Part shown: piece by piece, positions 6,472 to 57,500 of the stretch
How positions within the stretch are numbered: the stretch's first letter is position 1
Layout: each line of letters starts with the position of its first letter
NCBI GenBank assembly: GCA_017399145.1
Contig: JAFQEG010000030.1
Span: 17,529 to 81,528, forward strand
Origin: Clostridia bacterium
Lineage (GTDB): Bacteria; Bacillota; Clostridia; Oscillospirales; CAG-272
Length of the DNA: 64,000 bases
Direction: 5' to 3'
The notes under the pieces: generated by a model
Database searches by the model: none
What the model was told of the DNA's origin: nothing
What the model saw: the letters and a program-made list of their open reading frames with translations, nothing else
Made by a program: the position numbers and the translations under genes

Positions 6472-7446
6472 TTATAGGTTGTTTGCAAGTGAGACTGTTA
6501 GCTTAACTGCCTCTTTTACGTCAACCATATCTATCATTTCAACCGAGGAATGAATATATGCGCTTGGAATTGAGATAGCGCCTGCTAGGCATCCCCCTGC
6601 AGTTACTTGAATACCTGCGGTATCAGTACCACCATAAGGAAGGACCTCGTTTTGATACTTTATGCCGTTTTCCTTGGCAATTCTTTGCATATCCTTGACA
6701 AGTGACGGCGCGCAAATAACGCTTGAATCCTTTAATTTAATAGCACAGCCCTTGCCTAATTCAATAGCTAAGGGGGTTGCGCCTGGCTTGTCGCCTGTGC
6801 CTGTTACGTCAAGGGCAATACCGATGTCCGGTCTTACTGTGTAGGTAACCGGCTTTGCGCCTCTGCCACCTACCTCCTCCTGTATGGAAAATACAAAGTA
6901 AAGGTCGTTGTCGGTTTTTACTTCCTTTAGTGCTTCAATTAGGATTGCACAGCCTACTCTGTCGTCAAAGGGTCTGCCTACGTATCTTTGATTCATTAGC
7001 TTTTTTATGCTTGGCTTTACAACGAAGAAGTCGCCTAGGCTAACCTTTGACTCTGCTTGCTTTTTGGTCCTTGCGCCGATGTCGATATACATTGACTCTG
7101 CCTTTAGTGTATCCTCTGATTTTTCCGGTACGATTACACCATCAACTCCGTTTTCAGAAATAACCTCGGTAAATGAGGCAGAGGTTAGGTTTACACCACC
7201 TACCGGGCTAATTTTGATAAAGCCCTTATCTGTAATATAGGTAACGAAAAAGCCGATTTCGTCCATATGGGCGCAAAACATTATTTTTTTGCCATTGCCC
7301 TTTTTGTGTGCGATTAGGTTACCTACTGGGTCGGTGATTACCTCGTCAACGTAAGGGGACACCTGGCTTTTGATAACCTCTCTTATTTTATCCTCTCTTC
7401 CTGAAACGGAAGGGGTAAGCATTAGCTTTTTTAGTAAATCTATCAT
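6472..7446 (-). CDS. M42 family metallopeptidase (glutamyl aminopeptidase / FrvX-like)
   Basis: HMDEIGF motif, DDRVGCA, EEVGGRGA, 324 aa. Confidence 0.85.
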   Translation of the reverse strand: MIDLLKKLMLTPSVSGREDKIREVIKSQVSPYVDEVITDPVGNLIAHKKGNGKKIMFCAHMDEIGFFVTYITDKGFIKISPVGGVNLTSASFTEVISENGVDGVIVPEKSEDTLKAESMYIDIGARTKKQAESKVSLGDFFVVKPSIKKLMNQRYVGRPFDDRVGCAILIEALKEVKTDNDLYFVFSIQEEVGGRGAKPVTYTVRPDIGIALDVTGTGDKPGATPLAIELGKGCAIKLKDSSVICAPSLVKDMQRIAKENGIKYQNEVLPYGGTDTAGIQVTAGGCLAGAISIPSAYIHSSVEMIDMVDVKEAVKLTVSLANNL

Positions 7447-10888: not shown

Positions 10889-11920
10889 TTAGTTAGGTTT
10901 TTCTAATAAAATATCAAGCATTTTTGCAAAGGGAATTCCCTTGCTATTAAGTAGCATTGGGTACATGCTAATATCGGTCATGCCTGGTAAGGTATTTACC
11001 TCGTTGAATATTATTTTATTTTCCCTGGTTATGAAAAAGTCTAGTCGTGACAAATCCTTAAGACCTAGGGCAAAAAATAGCTTTTTGCTACACTCCTTCA
11101 AGGATTTTTCTGTTTTTTCGTCAATTTTTGAGGGAATTTGATACTTGGTATTTTGGTTTTTGTATTTTTCCTCGTAAGTATAAAAGCTTTCCTTGTAGCT
11201 TAGCTGACCTGACTCAATTGCTATTATTTGGTGGTCCTTTTCTAAAATTGCAACCTCGGTTTCCACCCCGTTTATGTATTCCTCAACAAGGGCACTCTTA
11301 GAATAGCTAAGTGCCTTTTCTAATGCGTTTTCTAGGTCTTCTCTTTTTTCTACTCTTGTAACACCTACTGATGAGCCTTGACAAGTGGGCTTTACAAACA
11401 CAGGGTAGGATATTTTTTCAATTTCGTTTTGAATTTCCTTTGATTGATAGTTATCGCATGTTACCAAAACGTCCCTTGCCACCCTTATGTCGAGTGCTTT
11501 TGCAAATTGCTTTGTTAGGTGCTTATTCATACAAACTCCACTAGCTTGTGGGTCTGGTCCTACGTAGTCGATTTTGGCAAGGTCAAGACAGGACTGTATT
11601 CGTCCGTCCTCGGCGTTTTCTCCGTGCATTACGATTAATGTGTTGTAGGGCTTTATTTTTCTTTTGTCGCTTGAAATAAATACACCAGAATTAAAATCAA
11701 TTGTTATTTCCTGCAGGGGGGAATCGTGCCAAGTGTCCTTTAGGATTTTTTCATTATCGCCCTCGTATAAATACCACTTACCCTTTTTTGTTATGCCTAT
11801 TTTTACAATTTGATATTTGTCCTTATCTAGTGCGTTTAAAACACTATAAGCTGACCTTAATGATACCTGATACTCACTGCTTTCGCCACCGAAAATTACG
11901 CAAATTAGTCTTTTATCCAT
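10889..11920 (-). CDS. ddl: D-alanine--D-alanine ligase
   Basis: N-terminus VIFGGESSEYQVSLRSA, ATP-grasp C-terminus EVNTLPGMT, 343 aa. Confidence 0.9.
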   Translation of the reverse strand: MDKRLICVIFGGESSEYQVSLRSAYSVLNALDKDKYQIVKIGITKKGKWYLYEGDNEKILKDTWHDSPLQEITIDFNSGVFISSDKRKIKPYNTLIVMHGENAEDGRIQSCLDLAKIDYVGPDPQASGVCMNKHLTKQFAKALDIRVARDVLVTCDNYQSKEIQNEIEKISYPVFVKPTCQGSSVGVTRVEKREDLENALEKALSYSKSALVEEYINGVETEVAILEKDHQIIAIESGQLSYKESFYTYEEKYKNQNTKYQIPSKIDEKTEKSLKECSKKLFFALGLKDLSRLDFFITRENKIIFNEVNTLPGMTDISMYPMLLNSKGIPFAKMLDILLEKPN

Positions 11921-12052
11921 TATGTACCTGCCTTTCTTCTAATATTATATGCAAGGCTGTTTGTTGGGTCAAAGACAGTTAAATTTCACAAATAACGGTA
12001 GATAAACAAAAAAGGACAGGAGCAAGTCATGTCTTTCGCTTATGGCGCAACA

Positions 12053-12292
12053 CTTATCACAGTGATATTCTGCGAAACAAGTTAAAATCAACGGTTTACC
12101 GTTGTATATCATCAATTTGAAAATTTGTATATCACCAATTTTGAAAAAATTGCATATCATCAAGTCGCGGGAAAAATACACGCTGGTGCGTGATGAGATA
12201 CGCCAAGGCGATGATATGCAACCTGCGGTTGATGATATACCAAGTCTGCGACTTGGATAAAAAGAAAACCTAATCCAAGTTCGGATTAGGTT
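12053..12292. repeat. mini-hairpin/linker array A (linker GATGATATAC family), compound palindrome
   Basis: Minus-sense linkers are GTATATCATCA 12104-12114, GTATATCACCA 12127-12137 and GCATATCATCA 12152-12162. Plus-sense linkers are GATGAGATAC 12192-12201, GATGATATGC 12210-12219 and GATGATATAC 12231-12240. Short hairpins lie between them: AACGGtttaCCGTT, ACGCtggtGCGT, GCCaaGGC, AACCtgcGGTT, CAAGTctgcgACTTG and AAACCTAATCCaagttcGGATTAGGTTT. Confidence 0.8.
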
Positions 12293-12355
12293 TCTTTTGG
12301 CGCACCTGATTTGCAACAGGTTGCAAAGACATTTCGAATTCACGACGGGCGATAT

Positions 12356-12392
12356 ACAAAAAAAGACAGGTTTTTACCTGTCTTTTTTTGTA
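12356..12392 (-). terminator. terminator of tRNA-Arg
   Basis: AAAAAAAGACAGG-ttttta-CCTGTCTTTTTTT immediately 3' of the tRNA on the minus strand. Confidence 0.8.
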
Positions 12393-12394
12393 TA

Positions 12395-12470
12395 TGGCGC
12401 GCCCGGCAGGATTCGAACCTGCGACCTACCGGTTCGTAGCCGGGCACTCTATCCGCTGAGCTACGGGCGC
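12395..12470 (-). tRNA. tRNA-Arg (anticodon ACG), CCA encoded
   Basis: The reverse complement GCGCCCGTAGCTCAGCGGATAGAGTGCCCGGCTACGAACCGGTAGGTCGCAGGTTCGAATCCTGCCGGGCGCGCCA folds as a 76-nt cloverleaf. Acceptor is GCGCCCG/CGGGCGC, anticodon loop CTACGAA, T-loop TTCGAAT. Confidence 0.9.
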
Positions 12471-12491
12471 ATACCATTTGAGTGCTTAAAT

Positions 12492-12520
12492 ATATTAACA
12501 CACATTTATTGAAATGTCAA
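12492..12520 (-). promoter_or_regulatory. promoter of tRNA-Arg
   Basis: On the minus strand: TTGACA (12520-12515), 17-nt spacer, TAATAT (12497-12492), about 20 nt upstream of the tRNA 5' end. Confidence 0.7.
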
Positions 12521-12555
12521 TAGCTTTAAGAAAAAAACTTTTTTCTTATATAATA

Positions 12556-19498: not shown

Positions 19499-19574
19499 GC
19501 TACTATGGCTCAGTTGGTAGAGCACATCCTTGGTAAGGATGAGGTCGCCAGTTCGATTCTGGCTAGTAGCTCCA
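19499..19574 (+). tRNA. tRNA-Thr (anticodon GGT), CCA encoded
   Basis: GCTACTATGGCTCAGTTGGTAGAGCACATCCTTGGTAAGGATGAGGTCGCCAGTTCGATTCTGGCTAGTAGCTCCA. Acceptor is GCTACTA/TAGTAGC, anticodon loop TTGGTAA, T-loop TTCGATT. Confidence 0.9.
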
Positions 19575-19575
19575 G

Positions 19576-19605
19576 AAAAACGACAGGTTAAGCCTGTCGT
19601 TTTTC
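19576..19605 (+). terminator. terminator of tRNA-Thr
   Basis: AAACGACAGG-ttaag-CCTGTCGTTT followed by TT. Confidence 0.75.
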
Positions 19606-19606
19606 A

Positions 19607-19868
19607 ATTAAATCCGTCGCAACGGGTTAAATCCCACTGACGTGGGATGAAATCACTACGTGATGAAGTCCGCCTTCGTCGGGTTGTAGATAGACGGATT
19701 TGATTTCATCTGAGTTGCAAACGAAGATTTCATCCAAGTGTGCTTGGATTTCATCGTGCTTTTGCACGATTTCATTCTACTATATATCATCAACCGAGGG
19801 TTGTATCCTCTCTCGCTGTGATGATAGACAATTTCTGCGAAATTGGTGATATACAAGGCTTTGCCTTG
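19607..19868. repeat. mini-hairpin/linker array B (GATGAAATC-type, then GATGATATAC-type linkers), compound palindrome
   Basis: Plus-sense linkers are TTAAATC 19608, GTTAAAT 19626, ATGAAATC 19647 and ATGAAGTC 19663. Minus-sense linkers are GATTTCATC 19702, GATTTCATC 19726, ATTTCATC 19748 and ATTTCAT 19769. These are followed by ATATCATCA 19783, GATGATAGAC 19820 and GGTGATATAC 19845. Hairpins between them are CCGTcgcaACGG, CCCACtgacGTGGG, CACtacGTG, CCAAGtgtgCTTGG, CGTGCttttGCACG, AATTTCtgcGAAATT and AAGGCtttGCCTT. Confidence 0.8.
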
Positions 19869-19879
19869 ATTTTTTAATT

Positions 19880-19912
19880 AAAAAAGTGCTTGGAAAATCC
19901 AAGCACTTTTTT
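19880..19912 (-). terminator. terminator of the LRR gene
   Basis: AGTGCTTGG-aaaat-CCAAGCACT (19885-19907) flanked by A and T runs, 2 nt after the stop. Confidence 0.75.
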
Positions 19913-19913
19913 G

Positions 19914-22900
19914 TTATTCTTCCACTCGGTAGTTGAATATCCTTTCTGCCCTATAAAGCTCATCCTCGGCACAGTTTACATCGACTATCCATTGTTTCTC
20001 TGTGCCTGCATAATACATCTTTTCTACGCCTGAATCTAGGAATGCGTATGGGTGAATTGTCTCGAGGCCTATTCCAAAATAGACTGTTTTCAGGTTTGTA
20101 CAGTTTCTAAACGCTGATGGGCCTATACTTGAAACTGAGTTACCTATTACTACCACTTGTAGCTTTTCATTACCACGGAAAGCATCACCAGCTATGGTTT
20201 TAACTGTTGATGGGATTACGTATTTACTGTCAAGCTTTGCTGGCGGGTATGCTATAAGCGTAGTCATATCCTTTTTAAATACTACTCCATCAATGCTACA
20301 TAGATACGGGTGATCCTGTGCTACAAAAAATTCCGATAATCCAAAGCAACCTGCTAGTGACCAATTGGAAACTCCTGTAAGCGTTGCAGGGATTGTCATA
20401 GCGCTTATATTGTAGCATCCCCAAAATGCATCGTTACCAAGGACACGGGTTGTGCTTGGGAAATCAATTCCTCTTAATTCTGTACAAAACCAAAAGGCAC
20501 CCATGTCAATCCATTCAAGTCCCTCATTGAGATTAATGGTTAGTAGATTGCTACAATTTGAAAAGGCATAGTTCTCGATTGAGAAAACAGTATCAGGCAA
20601 AGTTACATACAGAATGCTTTTGTTGTCCGCAAAGGAATATGGCCCAACTATCTCAGTACCACTTGGCACTATGTAGGTGCTACCTTCCTTCTTTGGTGGG
20701 TATCTTACTAGCCTACCTTCACTATCAAATAAAACGCCATCTATACTATAAAAGGCTTCACTTGTTTCGTCAACCGATATACTTTCTAGGTTTGATTGAG
20801 AAAACGCCTCATAGTTAATTGTAGTTGTTGTGCTTGGAATTGTAACAGTTTTAAAGCCTACCTTACTAAACGCATATTCTTGAATTGTCTTAAGGCTTTC
20901 ACCTAGGTTTACATTTTCTAAGCCTGTACAATTGCTAAAGGCGTACTCGCTAATAAAGGCTGTACCATCTAGGGTTACGTTTTTAATATTGATACAATTC
21001 TCGAAATATCTAGTTGGCACGCTTGAGGCACCATATACCACGGTTGTTAGCTTATCTGGAATATAGAAGCCATAGTACATAGGATTGTACTTGCTGTCAT
21101 CATAGCATTGAAGGGTTTTTGTTGAACCATCAAATTTCTCCTCTCCGAATAGATATCCAAAGTATCTAGTTTTAAGAATATCCTCATCGCCTTCATAGTA
21201 AGTGTTAATTTTTTCTAAGTTGTAGCATCCCGACAGAATTGCCTCGCCTAGTGAGGTTATATCCTTAGACACTGTATATTCCTTTACAGCGGTACAGCCC
21301 TTAAAGGCATAATTTCCAATAGTCATAACTCCCTGTATGTCTAGGTTTTCCATTGAAGTGCAATTCAAAAATGCGTAATCCTTAATTTCGTAGACGCTAT
21401 TTGCCACTAGGGTGGTTAAAGAATTACAATTTGCAAAGGCATAGCTACCTATACTATCAATTGTTTCCACTATTGAAAATTCCTTTAGCTTAATACAGCC
21501 TGAGAATGAATTATTATGGATTACGATATCCTTGTAAGGTATGTAGCCATTTGCGCTTACCTTTACAAGCGAGGTGCAGTTTTCAAAGGCATTTGCACCA
21601 AATTCAGCCACTGCTCCGGCTATTTCTACATTTTCTAGTGCTTTACACTCTGCAAATGCATAGCTACCGATAGTTGTATCTTTGACTGGTAAGGATATAC
21701 CCTTTAGGCTAGTACAGTTATAGAATGCGTAGTCCTTAAATACCTCTACGCCCTTAGGTGTTGATAGCTGTACAAGGCTAGTACAGTTTTCAAAGGCACT
21801 CTTGCCTATACTATTTACCATTGTGCTAAAGGATACGCTTTCAAGTCCTGTACAATTACGGAAGGCACCCTCGCCAACCTCGCTAAGATATTGTGGTAGA
21901 CTTACGGTCTTTATTCCTACTATGCCCTCAAAGGCATATTTGTGAATGCTTGTACAAGTGCTACCCTCTTCAAAGGTAAGGCTTGTTAGCTTAGGTGCGT
22001 TTTCATTTTGCTGATATTCAGGTCTAAACAGATAGTTAGGTATTTCTTTTGCCGCTGTACCTATTATCAATGACGTGCCCTCTGTGTCAGCACCTGCACG
22101 ATAGAATATTTTGTTGCTTTCCTCCAAGCTATCATTTACTATGGTATGCACAATATTATAGTTGATTTTTGATAGCTTGGTTGTACCATAAAAGGCTTCA
22201 TAGTCTATGTGTACACTTTTTCCACCAAGGGTCAATTCCTCAATTGAAGCACAATTCTTGAAGGCTTTCTCGCCAATTGATGAAATATCATTGTCTAATG
22301 TAACCCTCTTCAAATAGATGTTATTCTCGAAGGCGTGATTGCTTATTAATGTTATGCCCTGTGGAAGGGTAAAGTCCTCATTTTTTCTGTCCTGTGGGTA
22401 GCAAATTAGGATTTCGCCTTTTATTAATGCGCCGTTATCTACCCTAAGTACTGAGTTTTCTTCGTCAACTATTATTTCCTCTAGCAAGCTACAACCATTA
22501 AAGCTAGTTGGAGATACCACAGTAAGTGAAGATGGCAATTTAATTGTGGAAATAGCGGTGCCTGTAAAGGCATACTCGTCTATTTCATTAAGTCCCTCGT
22601 TTAGGCTTATAGAGTTAAAGCCACAATTATAAAATGCATAGCCATAGATTTTAACTGTGCTTGGTGATAAATTCACCTCGGTCAATGCTGTACAATTATA
22701 AAAGGCTTTCTCTTTTACCGCTTGGACTTCGTTTGGTATTTGAATTTTCTTTAGTCCTGTACAGTTTTTAAACACACCTGCACCAAGTACTCTAACTCCC
22801 GTTGGAATTGTTATTTTTTCAATTCCAACACAGTCTGCAAAGGCTTCATCACCGATAGACGTAATATCACTAGGAAGAATTATTTCCGTTAGGCTACCAC

Positions 22901-52962: not shown

Positions 52963-52991
52963 TTGACAAGCTAGGTGTTTCGTGTTATAAT
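52963..52991 (+). promoter_or_regulatory. promoter of the rplJL operon
   Basis: TTGACA (52963-52968), 17-nt spacer, TATAAT (52986-52991). Confidence 0.75.
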
Positions 52992-52997
52992 ACCTAC

Positions 52998-53130
52998 GCT
53001 AATCCAAAGACAGCAGGTTACGGTAATTGCATTTAGTATGCTTCCTGCCGAGGAAAGAGTTAATATTTTTAATAATTAAATCTTTTTTCGGTATGCATAT
53101 TTTATGTTTATCGTGAAAAGATTTTTTCTT
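52998..53130 (+). promoter_or_regulatory. ribosomal protein L10 leader (autoregulatory attenuator)
   Basis: Its position upstream of rplJ fits. AAAGACAGCAGG...CTTCCTGCCGAGG helices are as I recall for the L10 leader. An attenuator hairpin ATCTTTTT..GAAAAGAT plus T-run follows (about 53080-53132). Confidence 0.55.
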
Positions 53131-53170
53131 TTATATGGCTGTTACGGAAATAACTAAGGAGGTTGTTTTT

Positions 53171-57396: not shown

Positions 57397-57500
57397 ACAA
57401 GGTGTACTACACCTTGTCCAACGAAATCCTCTTACGAGGATGAAATCAACTGTGTTGATGAAGTCACTTCGTGATGAAGTCCTCGCTACGCAAGGGTTAA
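57396..57500. repeat. mini-hairpin/linker array E
   Basis: GACAAGGTGTactacACCTTGTC (57396-57418), CCTCttacGAGG (57428-57439), ATGAAATC (57440-57447), CAACtgtGTTG (57447-57457), ATGAAGTC (57458-57465), CACttcGTG (57465-57473), ATGAAGTC (57474-57481), CCTCGCtacGCAAGG (57481-57495). Confidence 0.75.

Follow-up and report, generated by a model that had tools for sequence, protein, structure and literature searches.

A compound palindromic hairpin array downstream of a tRNA-Arg gene is a member of a modular repeat family of gut Clostridia related to Gut-1

REP/BIME elements of enterobacteria and pseudomonads, which occur with RAYT transposases, combine a conserved short motif with an imperfect palindrome and are clustered as alternating or inverted units. 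They are extragenic, lie near 3' ends and terminators, are present in many copies with a variable number of units, and are passively transcribed. BOX elements of Streptococcus pneumoniae have a varying number of internal modules between complementary ends, and are intergenic, non-coding and structured when single-stranded. Among small structural motifs, d(C-GNA-G) is an unusually stable DNA mini-hairpin. The Gut-1 motif was proposed as an RNA on the basis of covariation (Weinberg et al. 2010, PMC2864571). It entered Rfam in 2010 and has remained an orphan there, described as "found only in human gut metagenomes" and with neither a host nor a genomic context assigned. The passages of that paper that describe Gut-1 give no function and do not mention a tRNA or tmRNA link or a compound palindrome (PMC2864571), and within the literature searched this original description was the sole paper to mention Gut-1.

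The window, the whole stretch of 64 kb of DNA that was analysed, contains, downstream of tRNA-Arg, an array of short hairpins (array A). This array represents one full copy of a repeat family that is modular and occurs in many copies in uncultured gut Clostridia. An nhmmer profile built from 19 other loci, with array A left out, matched it over its full length (E = 5.1e-32, model positions 1-185, window 12258-12087 on the minus strand, in tRNA sense). The family has well over 100 MAG loci in gut Clostridia, Oscillospiraceae and Christensenellaceae. Pattern searches found GATGAWAT three times in >120 loci and TATGGMATC three times in >119, compared with about 11 and 0.3 chance matches, respectively, estimated from the pattern and the database size. 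Nearly all of the pattern matches that are arrays belong to MAGs of gut Clostridia, where several arrays occur in one MAG; the host MAGs belong to Oscillospiraceae, Acutalibacteraceae and Christensenellaceae and come from several animal hosts, not from humans only. The window sequence was detected only in gut metagenome runs, and the evidence for the family is drawn entirely from MAGs or metagenomes.

The layout of the family is constant. A tRNA or tmRNA, with CCA, is followed by an A-tract terminator, a T-tract, ATCC and a terminal hairpin, and then by (ATATCATC+hairpin)n, a centre, (GATGATAT+hairpin)n and GATTT. Each unit consists of an 8-10-nt linker and a 4-7-bp mini-hairpin, the units form a block in one orientation and then an inverted block, and the ends of the element are truncated linkers (TTTATC... 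and ...GATTT). Paralogous and orthologous arrays share this inverted layout of two blocks, the unit counts of the two halves are often unequal, and several linker dialects coexist per genome.

Rfam Gut-1 (RF01706) is a sister subfamily, which includes the second array of the window (array B), located after tRNA-Thr. Array A has the Gut-1 hallmark of at least three short hairpins parted by a G(A)UGAWAU-type linker (here GAUGAUAURC), and scores 18.2 bits against the RF01706 model at 12169-12243 (+), below the gathering score of 50; at gathering thresholds Rfam gave no match at array A. Array B scores 40.1 bits, and related sister arrays in the same MAGs score 50-77 bits, above the gathering score. 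The Rfam model spans only the tRNA-proximal half of the array, and at least one member of the Gut-1 seed alignment, BAAZ01025322, itself runs from the 3' end of a tRNA through a terminator and a GUGAUAU half to an inverted AUAUCAC half. Both the scores of the sister arrays and the organization of the seed member argue for the main alternative considered here, that the array is a genuine Gut-1-class structured ncRNA, made as a tRNA/tmRNA 3' trailer or from its own promoter, in which the linkers would be binding sites for protein or RNA (a sponge or scaffold) or would form the helices of a branched rod. Overall this alternative was judged rather unlikely.

A sequence-only reading of the window had described a compound palindrome at 12053-12355. 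The array after tRNA-Arg is real, with the minus strand in tRNA-Arg sense, and the six GATGATATAC-type 10-mers of that reading are in place, three per strand with mini-hairpins between them; the element proper is narrower, at 12086-12260 on the minus strand (Table 1). The array had been placed about 60 nt after the tRNA-Arg terminator, but a second terminator adjoins it directly instead, and a spacer of about 50 nt parts this terminator from that of the tRNA. A search of the whole window for linkers with at most one mismatch gave 12 matches versus 2.6 expected, a count reached in 0 of 100 shuffles of the window, and 9 of the 12 fall inside the two tRNA-flanking arrays. The two exact complementarities between the halves also hold, each over 12 nt (12104-12115 with 12229-12240, and 12150-12161 with 12210-12221). 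Both strands of array A fold far more stably than shuffled controls, with z-scores of -8.6 (minus) and -5.9 (plus) for 12053-12355 as RNA, and of -5.8/-5.3 as RNA and -6.7/-6.6 as DNA for 12086-12260; such folding of both strands, at z of about -5 to -6, is compatible with a structured ncRNA and speaks in its favour. In the minimum free energy folds of either strand the linkers form long-range helices and the hairpins protrude as branches. Long-range linker-linker pairing in array A, as had been suggested, is possible: the linkers of the halves are complementary and the folds use them, but the pairing found no independent support. The ORFs 11969-12343 (-) and 12297-12512 (+) were correctly taken as artefacts, being without a Pfam match or a called gene in the public contig, as is a third mechanical ORF that crosses the array at 12102-12260 (+).

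Table 1 Features of the array A locus, in window coordinates and in tRNA sense from the tRNA onwards
Feature	Position	Strand	Basis or remark
tRNA-Arg(ACG), encoded CCA	12395-12470	-	ARAGORN; Rfam tRNA, 66 bits; gene carrying the array
Terminator 1 of tRNA-Arg	12346-12401	-	Inverted repeat; A-tract, GACAGG..CCTGTC stem, T-tract; bidirectional shape
Spacer, resembles a decayed tRNA-Arg 3' half (TTCGAAAT ... CAGGTGCG-CCA)	12299-12345	-	Putative, from sequence and alignment
Small hairpin TTGCAACCTGTTGCAA	within 12299-12345	-	Sequence
Terminator 2 (AAAGAAACCTAATCC..GGATTAGGTTTTCTTTTT), CCA before it	12261-12298	-	Terminator scan, inverted repeat; adjoins array
TTTTTATCC, truncated linker	just before 12240-12256	-	Precedes terminal hairpin
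Terminal hairpin CCAAGTC-GCA-GACTTGG	12240-12256	-	Three of its pairs with compensatory changes
Linker GATGATATAC (minus-strand reading GTATATCATC)	12231-12240	+	First unit in tRNA sense
Mini-hairpin AACC-GCA-GGTT	12220-12230	-	Sequence, fold
Linker GATGATATGC	12210-12219	+	Motif search
Mini-hairpin GCCTTGGC	12202-12209	-	Sequence
Linker GATGAGATAC	12192-12201	+	ATCTCATC variant, frequent at that position in the family
Central hairpin CACGC-ACCA-GCGTG	12179-12192	-	ACGC..GCGTG hairpin conserved at that family position
Centre, A/T-rich stretch and GCGACTT	12162-12178	-	Complements AAGTCGC, the 5' arm and loop start of the terminal hairpin
Linker GATGATATGC	12152-12161	-	First unit of inverted block
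Mini-hairpin AATTTT..AAAATT	12137-12151	-	Family AATTCC/GGAATT hairpin altered by compensatory substitutions
Linker GGTGATATAC	12127-12136	-	Motif search
A/T mini-hairpin AAATTTTCAAATT	12114-12126	-	Sequence, fold
Linker GATGATATAC	12104-12113	-	Motif search
Last mini-hairpin AACGG-TAAA-CCGTT	12090-12103	-	Terminator scan, fold
Truncated terminal linker GATT(TT), right end of element	12086-12089	-	Profile match stops at 12087
Segment missing from L386/L387 (CCA, terminator 2, array, right flank)	12045-12300		Alignment
Degenerate GCGCCA and GACAGG-type terminator, paralogue of 12345-12400	11995-12048	-	Repeat search

At the orthologous site, a 73 % orthologue (L385) carries another linker dialect, and three compensatory double changes separate its pair GTATGGAATC/GATTCCATAC from GTATATCATC/GATGATATAC, but no covariation was found in 20 aligned family members, in which the linker-linker pairs are invariant and therefore carry none. 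The variable Y/R positions beside the linkers in these 20 members do not covary either, and the TATGGCATC/GATTCCATA dialect has a systematic mismatch between the two halves. A long-range complementarity that does covary had been missed in the sequence-only reading. The 5' arm and loop of the terminal hairpin are complementary to the centre, over 7 nt in array A (AAGTCGC/GCGACTT) and 9-12 nt in most members, and in 22 of 28 distinct cases the match includes 3 nt or more of the loop; a control with mismatched partners gave a mean of 1.8 and a maximum of 6. The hairpin stems of the 20 aligned members have many compensatory changes, as a structured ncRNA would. Their sequences vary between units and loci, and the conserved part of the array is the linkers only.

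The hairpins have a polarity. Of 334 distinct unit hairpins, 71 % have a C-G closing pair and 55 % are triloops, the commonest being C-GAA-G, C-GCA-G and C-GTA-G, and the loops on the ATATCATC strand are G..A in 136 cases versus T..C in 3. Loop polarity is 54:4 sense in one half and 46:3 antisense in the other, and G.U pairs, overall rare (about 2-3 %), are richer on the same favoured strand of each unit (13 versus 3). Since both polarity and G.U tolerance follow the orientation of the unit, they are as predicted for the inverted duplication of an oriented DNA unit and not for a single RNA branched rod. Because they flip between the halves, no single transcript carries all units in the favoured form, which stands against the ncRNA alternative, as do the dominance of triloops and the rarity of G.U pairs.

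Array A resembles a REP-like DNA element more closely than a dedicated RNA linked to the tRNA, and our tentative best explanation, to which we give slightly less than an even chance, is a REP/BIME-like ssDNA hairpin repeat that is anchored at the terminators of stable RNAs and passively transcribed. The units would be built to fold as ssDNA C-GNA-G mini-hairpins on the strand with the ATATCATC form, as we infer from the loop statistics and from the stability of d(C-GNA-G) mini-hairpins, and the two halves would therefore fold best on opposite strands. An exposed strand, either the lagging-strand template or the non-template strand near a heavily transcribed gene, would show one half as a row of hairpins with the linkers single-stranded. 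Recombination at the linkers, or an ssDNA enzyme acting in trans, could then produce gain and loss of units, swaps of hairpins, gain and loss of whole elements, and inversion of cassettes. Terminator read-through would bring the element into RNA, where it may secondarily be a direction-independent structured stopper or a nuclease-resistant end. Several observations count against this REP/BIME-like reading: the hairpins are variable and the linkers conserved, unlike in REPs, and Gut-1 was proposed from covariation and has an array that is covered by RNA.

That coverage comes from metatranscriptomes, the contigs of which are without strand information and in some cases may derive from paralogous arrays. 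Run X23 has RNA contigs over a Gut-1 array after a tmRNA (L076), at a depth of 11-46 for the array, 46 for the tmRNA body and zero for the flanks; one of these contigs crosses the tmRNA end, the terminator and the start of the array. In run X30, one RNA contig extends from the tmRNA 3' end to position 7168. A related array thus occurs in RNA contiguous with a tmRNA 3' end, and at tmRNA-like depth in X23, a point in favour of the ncRNA alternative. For an array of the same type as array A (type 1) after another tmRNA (L045) there was too little depth for such a comparison. The window was represented in metatranscriptomes by fragments in two runs only, which are unstranded and from other organisms, and for the window the ratio of array depth to flank depth differs little between RNA and DNA runs, a DNA-like behaviour that weighs against a dedicated RNA. 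Nor was a conserved promoter seen, and the element lies behind strong terminators. At about 5 loci only, TTGATT-17-TATAAT follows the element directly, and its counterpart in the window is weak; a general promoter role of the array was rejected on the same grounds. A role of the central hairpin as a terminator was rejected as well, since the terminator-like reading is not conserved across the family.

The association with tRNA terminators noted for array A is real and general across the family. About 45 arrays start 54-90 nt beyond tRNA 3' ends, always downstream in tRNA sense; the tRNA-linked arrays follow >11 isotypes, other arrays follow tmRNA, and terminators adjoin the arrays directly in all family members. 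Array A likewise abuts the T-tract of an A/T-flanked terminator (terminator 2, then TTTTTATCC), with tRNA-Arg about 100 nt upstream and another terminator and a tRNA-like remnant between them. Both tRNAs of the window carry an array, and no array occurs anywhere else in it. None was found at 115 tRNA-Arg loci of other phyla, identified by a scan with the tRNA-Arg 3' half, or in 9 related loci without a tRNA, and relatives of Ddl in genome and metagenome contigs (peptide patterns, about 43 % identity and so too distant for comparison) have no tRNA or array nearby. The idea that the middle triplet of the linker relates to the anticodon was given up, since arrays with a single linker type occur behind many isotypes. 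That the arrays keep strictly to tRNA/tmRNA terminators, and that each subfamily has its halves in a fixed order, looks like function or targeting and not random spread, and this counts against the REP/BIME-like reading.

Comparison with related strains revealed absence of the whole element in one case and a different dialect, in L385, in another. The element is dispensable at the tRNA-Arg locus in a sibling strain: in contigs L386/L387, with a Ddl 98 % identical, the array is absent and 12 nt, TTTAAGGCGTGA, stand in place of 12045-12300, which is not a clean insertion. The missing segment begins with CCA and its own terminator. In L386 the stem of terminator 1 has been exchanged for an unrelated stem, and the spacer 12299-12345 is present, minus its CCA. 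The terminator copy at 11995-12048 occurs in L385 and L386 too and lies directly upstream of the ddl promoter (11944-11972). In the relative L384 and in DNA runs the tRNA cassette has the opposite orientation, with breakpoints outside the array; the order of hairpins is shuffled between loci L117 and L125; and tRNA 3' fragments adjoin arrays. Contigs with an identical Ddl have an identical intergenic region and are thus uninformative.

Dispensability in a sibling strain is a further point against the ncRNA alternative, and the presence or absence of the segment between siblings is what would be expected of a selfish MITE- or REPIN-like element that inserts in the T-tracts of A/T-flanked terminators behind stable-RNA genes, is mobilised by a remote transposase and has no host role. 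Such an element would also explain the imperfect terminal inverted repeats (ATCC-hairpin-ATATCATC versus GATGATAT-hairpin-GATT), the right flank usually beginning with T's, the many copies with several coexisting dialects per genome, and the absence of a linked gene. We regard it as improbable, since the L386 indel is unclean and the segment starts with CCA and a terminator, a target duplication is indistinguishable from the T-tract, with T-runs on both sides of the arrays, the copies are not near-identical from locus to locus but mosaics with their hairpins shuffled, and no transposase came to light. The selfish-element reading shares ground with the REP/BIME-like one, from which only its denial of a host role sets it apart. 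No RAYT/HUH or other enzyme gene was found in the 8-kb loci or in the 64-kb window, and when the ORFs near 64 arrays were clustered, no linked gene family emerged, only spurious ORFs that cross the arrays; a linked toxin, integrase or transposase was rejected on this basis. A phage or plasmid origin was also rejected: the array has no blastn match in phages or plasmids, and the 119 IMG/VR pattern matches are not array-like, 111 being without a hairpin-forming spacer and 7 having one, while the single match with two is a perfect tandem repeat.

The 3' ends of tRNA and tmRNA genes are classical integration sites, and the array could be read as a set of double-stranded protein sites with dyad symmetry beside tRNA genes, such as recombinase arm-type sites, iterons or a nucleoid or roadblock array. 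A conserved motif of 8-14 bp, TTGATGATATACAA, that recurs as direct and inverted copies next to the 3' ends of tRNA and tmRNA genes is consistent with this, as is the inverted tRNA cassette in relatives, although the inversion breakpoints lie outside the array. The linkers are spaced 16-31 bp apart with no 10.5-bp period or other helical phasing, and what lies between them is in every case a hairpin showing compensatory changes and loop polarity, which duplex sites would not need. Together with the lack of an integrase or other linked gene and a range of >11 isotypes, too many for one integrase, this leaves the explanation very unlikely. An integrase arm-type or att site in the strict sense was rejected, with no recurrent neighbour gene, with terminators that part the array from the tRNA, and with >11 isotypes and tmRNA.

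A more far-reaching reading, to which only a small probability is assigned, is that Gut-1 and its relatives are no RNA genes but belong to a DNA system shared across the clade. Arrays of C-GNA-G ssDNA mini-hairpins at tRNA/tmRNA ends would be written, swapped and inverted by a dedicated enzyme, perhaps one matched to each of the coexisting dialects. They would serve the cell at its most transcribed genes, where they might buffer supercoiling or conflicts between transcription and replication, or move tRNA cassettes. The analysis gives Gut-1 hosts, namely MAGs of Oscillospiraceae, Acutalibacteraceae and Christensenellaceae sampled from many animals, a strict position immediately beyond the terminators of tRNA and tmRNA genes, and a full two-block architecture. 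It also adds two or more subfamilies, among them the GATGATAT type found in the window and the TATGGMATC type. The DNA-like hairpins and the gain, loss and inversion at strain level make it directly testable whether the element is RNA or DNA. For annotation, the arrays produce spurious ORFs and break assemblies.

Type III toxin-antitoxin repeats and CRISPR were rejected as counterparts, given the inverted blocks with variable hairpins and the absence of a linked gene. The hairpins of the array resemble d(GCGAAGC) and d(C-GNA-G) mini-hairpins in that 71 % are C-G closed with GAA, GCA or GTA loops on one strand; these are a structural motif and not a genetic element, and the loop statistics suggest their relevance. 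With BOX and other modular MITE-like repeats the array shares a modular build, an intergenic, non-coding location and strong structure when single-stranded, but it has no sequence similarity to BOX, the modules of which are 45-59 nt, are not one hairpin per unit and are without specificity for tRNA terminators. With REP/BIME it shares units of a short motif and an imperfect palindrome, inverted clusters, an extragenic location near 3' ends, many copies and a variable number of units, but here the palindromes vary and the linker is conserved, the reverse of REP palindromes; there are two blocks rather than alternating units; and the arrays are specific to tRNA/tmRNA terminators and hosted by Clostridia. 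Gut-1 has the same variable short hairpins parted by a conserved purine-rich linker (GUGAAAU/GUGAUAU there, GAUGAUAU here) and the same gut metagenome origin. Array A differs from it in having GATGATATRC as its linker, in the reversed order of the halves relative to the tRNA, with the ATATCATC block first, and in a terminal hairpin of which the 5' arm and loop are repeated inverted at the centre.

Array A, a hairpin-and-linker element on the minus strand (12086-12260), occupies the spacer between ddl and tRNA-Arg. A motif scan returned its six linker 10-mers (the linker being a conserved 8-10-nt motif) at exactly the positions that a sequence-only reading had assigned to them. With at most one mismatch, the 10-mer was found 12 times in the window against 2.6 expected, a count reached in 0 of 100 shuffles; six matches lie in array A and three in the array behind tRNA-Thr (19499-19574, plus strand). 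The linker complementarities described in that reading were recovered by an inverted-repeat search as two perfect 12-nt pairs (12104-12115/12229-12240 and 12150-12161/12210-12221), and small hairpins are present between the linkers. In the comparison with shuffled sequences that the same reading had proposed, the array region folded clearly better on both strands (RNA fold of 12053-12355, z=-8.6 minus and -5.9 plus; array alone, 12086-12260, RNA z=-5.8/-5.3 and DNA z=-6.7/-6.6). The open reading frames over the region are mechanical only, as had been supposed, with no Pfam match and no gene annotated there in the public contig. Array-traversing frames in other genomes were the sole "conserved" neighbours found by ORF clustering, which found no recurrent protein family beside the arrays.

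Features of the two tRNA-associated array loci in the window
Feature	Position	Strand	Remarks
ddl	10889-11920	minus	Pfam Dala_Dala_lig domains
ddl/tRNA-Arg spacer	11921-12394		houses array A
tRNA-Arg(ACG)	12395-12470	minus	
Second array region	19575-19915	plus	behind tRNA-Thr terminator
Gut-1-type compound array	19605-19775	plus	TAAATCC and GATGAAATC linkers, then GGATTT and 4-5 GATTTCATC linkers
Short type-1 element (array A's subfamily)	19782-19871	plus	immediately past the Gut-1-type array; followed by the bidirectional terminator of a convergent gene

The array family is real and widespread, and its architecture is conserved. When genomes, one per species, were scanned for three copies of GATGAWAT at spacings of 7-24 nt, more than 120 loci emerged against about 11 estimated by chance, the large majority in gut MAGs of Clostridia, Eubacteriales, Acutalibacteraceae, Oscillospiraceae or Christensenellaceae. 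A single architecture is common to 38 elements; in the orientation of the gene upstream, it consists of the stable-RNA 3' end (...CCA), a terminator hairpin preceded by an A-tract and followed by a T-tract, ATCC with a terminal hairpin (CCATTGC-GAAA-GCAATGG or CCAAGYC-GCA-GRCTTGG), 2-5 units of ATATCATC plus hairpin, an ACGC..GCGTG hairpin followed by a short A/T-rich stretch, 3-4 units of GATGATATRC plus hairpin, and a GATT(T) end. TTTATC and GATTT at the two ends can be taken as truncated linkers, so that the whole element forms a single large imperfect palindrome. A profile based on 19 other loci, with the window excluded, matched 12258-12087 (minus) over its full length (E=5e-32) and the short copy at 19738-19871 (plus; E=3e-14). 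Arrays of the same architecture occur with a third linker dialect, TATGGMATC/GATKCCATA (L385 2650-2830; L388-L467), at more than 119 loci against about 0.3 estimated by chance; this dialect occurs widely among the same gut Clostridia and shares single MAGs with the GATGATAT and GATGAAAT types (RGIG4287, RGIG5333, RGIG8539, RGIG2028). A further array type, AATGATATC..GATGATATC three times followed by GAGGAATATT-type motifs, with hairpins that take ATC/GAT from the linkers, was seen at 560-700 of L021, a Phascolarctobacterium succinatutens MAG, with no adjoining tRNA, and also in L018, L029, L114 and L133; it extends beyond Oscillospirales.

About 45 arrays lie 54-90 nt past a tRNA 3' end, downstream in the tRNA sense every time, and involve tRNAs for His, Glu, Ser, Tyr, Leu, Gly, Pro, Arg, Gln, Thr, Trp and Lys; others lie behind tmRNA (L045, L076) or tRNA 3' fragments (L093). 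Both tRNA genes of the 64-kb window bear an array, and no array is present elsewhere in it. Arrays were absent from all nine related loci lacking a tRNA and from all 115 tRNA-Arg genes that share the identical 3' half in other phyla. An origin as a phage or plasmid element was considered and rejected, as arrays were not found in phages or plasmids. Three GATGAAAT/GATGAAGT motifs at 57439-57480 (plus), spaced 16-18 nt apart with no adjoining tRNA and about 4.5 kb downstream of an L10 leader (52986-53136), were put down to chance or to coding sequence. At the right end of some elements (including L032, L037, L112, L117 and L125) the last hairpin and GATTT yield TTGATT, with TATAAT exactly 17 nt on, so that the element provides the -35 box of the downstream gene's promoter; the window counterpart is weak (TTGATT, 17 nt, ATATCA).

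True relatives of the ddl locus were obtained via Ddl homologues. Two of them from two samples (L386 and L387, Ddl 98% identical) keep the tRNA-Arg-to-ddl order and have flanks about 97% identical, but carry 12 nt in place of window positions 12045-12300, which comprise the CCA, the terminator abutting array A, the entire array and its right flank. Their tRNA-Arg terminator stem-loop is unrelated to that of the window (GACAGGTAAAAACCTGTC at window 12353-12394 vs ACACACCACTCGTGGTGTGT at L386 32-70) within retained A- and T-tracts, a hairpin "cassette" swap resembling those between array units. L385 (Ddl 73%, synteny kept) shows the canonical tRNA-terminator-array order with a matching centre; its terminal hairpin, AAGCCGCAGGCTTGG, is related to that of the window with a compensatory C-G/T-A change, and its linkers are all of another dialect (TATGGCATC/TATGGAATC and GATTCCATAC), with three compensatory double changes separating GTATGGAATC/GATTCCATAC from GTATATCATC/GATGATATAC. 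The tRNA-Arg cassette and its promoter are inverted relative to ddl and a 1185-aa gene in L384 (Ddl 86%), and the inverted cassette recurs in contigs (~90% identical) of DNA runs X9, X12 and X13. Hairpin order is shuffled between the otherwise near-identical elements L117 and L125, and the L119 element contains partial tandem duplications. Strain-level absence, dialect change, inversion and shuffling together indicate that the array is dispensable at the ddl site and turns over rapidly. That the arrays are purely selfish MITEs is improbable. The inverted segment corresponds to about 11938-12553 of the window, and short A/T-rich inverted repeats lie at its breakpoints (11937-11950/12548-12561 and 12004-12025/12571-12592). 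Three copies of GCGCCA, the 3' end of tRNA-Arg, are present on the minus strand with terminator-like sequence behind each; the stretch at 11995-12048 is a degenerate paralogue of that at 12345-12400, the one at 12299-12345 resembles a tRNA 3' half in decay, and a similar tRNA-Ser fragment precedes the L093 array.

A conserved complementarity absent from the sequence-only reading links the terminal hairpin to the centre of the element. The segment directly 5' of the first GATGATAT complements the 5' arm and loop of the terminal hairpin, usually for 9-12 nt (mismatched partners: mean 1.8, maximum 6); in 22 of 28 distinct cases, 3 or more nucleotides of the loop are included. This pair covaries in at least five variants (ATTGCGAAAG/CTTTCGCAAT, AAGCCGCAGG/CCTGCGGCTT, AAGCCGACAG/CTGTCGGCTT, ATTACGGAG/CTCCGTAAT and AAGTCGCAG/CTGCGACTT), and reads AAGTCGC/GCGACTT in array A (12248-12254 vs 12162-12168). 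It could be an alternative single-strand pairing or a DNA-level inverted repeat that is kept identical.

Several results point to the unit (linker plus mini-hairpin) as a DNA-level module that was copied in inverted orientation. Among 334 distinct unit hairpins, the closing pair is C-G in 71%, and loops are of 3 nt in 55% and 4 nt in 33%, most frequently C-GAA-G, C-GCA-G, C-GTA-G and GCAA; on the ATATCATC strand G..A loops outnumber T..C loops by 136 to 3. Triloops are unusual in functional RNAs, and d(C-GNA-G) is a classic, very stable DNA mini-hairpin. G.U pairs are rare, at ~2-3% of pairs. In tRNA orientation, the sense strand gives the better fold for ATATCATC-type units (54:4) and the antisense strand for GATGATAT-type units (46:3), a rule that G.U pairs also obey (13 vs 3). 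No one transcript therefore has all units in their favoured form, which speaks against the main rival explanation, that the arrays are a true Gut-1-class RNA (Gut-1 being the orphan motif RF01706), a rival that was judged rather unlikely. The two halves are often unequal in unit number, and in a third subfamily they mismatch systematically (TATGGCATC vs GATTCCATA). RNAalifold on 20 members showed compensatory changes at 16 of 42 pairs, located in the terminal hairpin and the three distal ones. The branched fold with long-range linker pairing that had been proposed is physically plausible but gained no independent support: linker-linker helices of minimum-free-energy folds lack covariation because they are invariant in the 20-member alignment, and none was found at the variable Y/R positions beside them. 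Linkers are spaced 16-31 nt apart without helical phasing, which argues for units defined by their hairpins and against an array of duplex protein-binding sites, a reading judged very improbable.

No informative RNA data for the window's organism were found in the metatranscriptomes searched. At L076, a tmRNA followed by a Gut-1 array, depth in metatranscriptome X23 was zero upstream of the tmRNA and past the array, 46 for the tmRNA-body contig and 11-46 for the array contigs, these RNA contigs being unstranded and some possibly from paralogous arrays. A single error-free X23 contig covers the tmRNA end, terminator and array start, and a single X30 contig extends from the 3' end of the tmRNA to position 7168. 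This coverage indicates that arrays reach RNA, most simply by read-through; at L045, a type-1 array behind tmRNA, it was too thin to read. In the best supported of the readings, adopted tentatively, the arrays are regarded as a family of REP/BIME-like, single-strand-folding DNA repeats anchored at tRNA/tmRNA terminators, sister to Gut-1 and passively transcribed, and might be useful as a direction-independent structured end.

Gut-1 was the only meaningful Rfam match at relaxed thresholds. Against a gathering score of 50, it scored 40.1 bits at 19605-19674 (plus), directly behind the tRNA-Thr terminator, and 18.2 bits in array A. In the compound array behind tRNA-Thr (19605-19775), AAATCCGTC (19610-19618) is complementary to GACGGATTT (19688-19696). 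Sister MAG arrays with GATGAAAT linkers reach or exceed the threshold (50-77 bits), the match always being the gene-proximal half on the tRNA/tmRNA sense strand. In the published seed alignment with flanks, BAAZ01025322 contains a tRNA 3' end (...GGCGCGCCA) and a terminator, followed by two halves, the first with GUGAUAU linkers and the second with AUAUCAC linkers. In the accessible text of the original paper, Gut-1 is known from human gut sequences only and from no sequenced organism (PMC2864571); no further mention was found in the literature searched, where neither its genomic setting nor its complete architecture appears to have been described. Array A differs from Gut-1 in its linker, in having its two halves the other way round with respect to the tRNA, and in the terminal-hairpin/centre complementarity that is a feature of its subfamily, and on these grounds it represents a new subfamily of this orphan motif.
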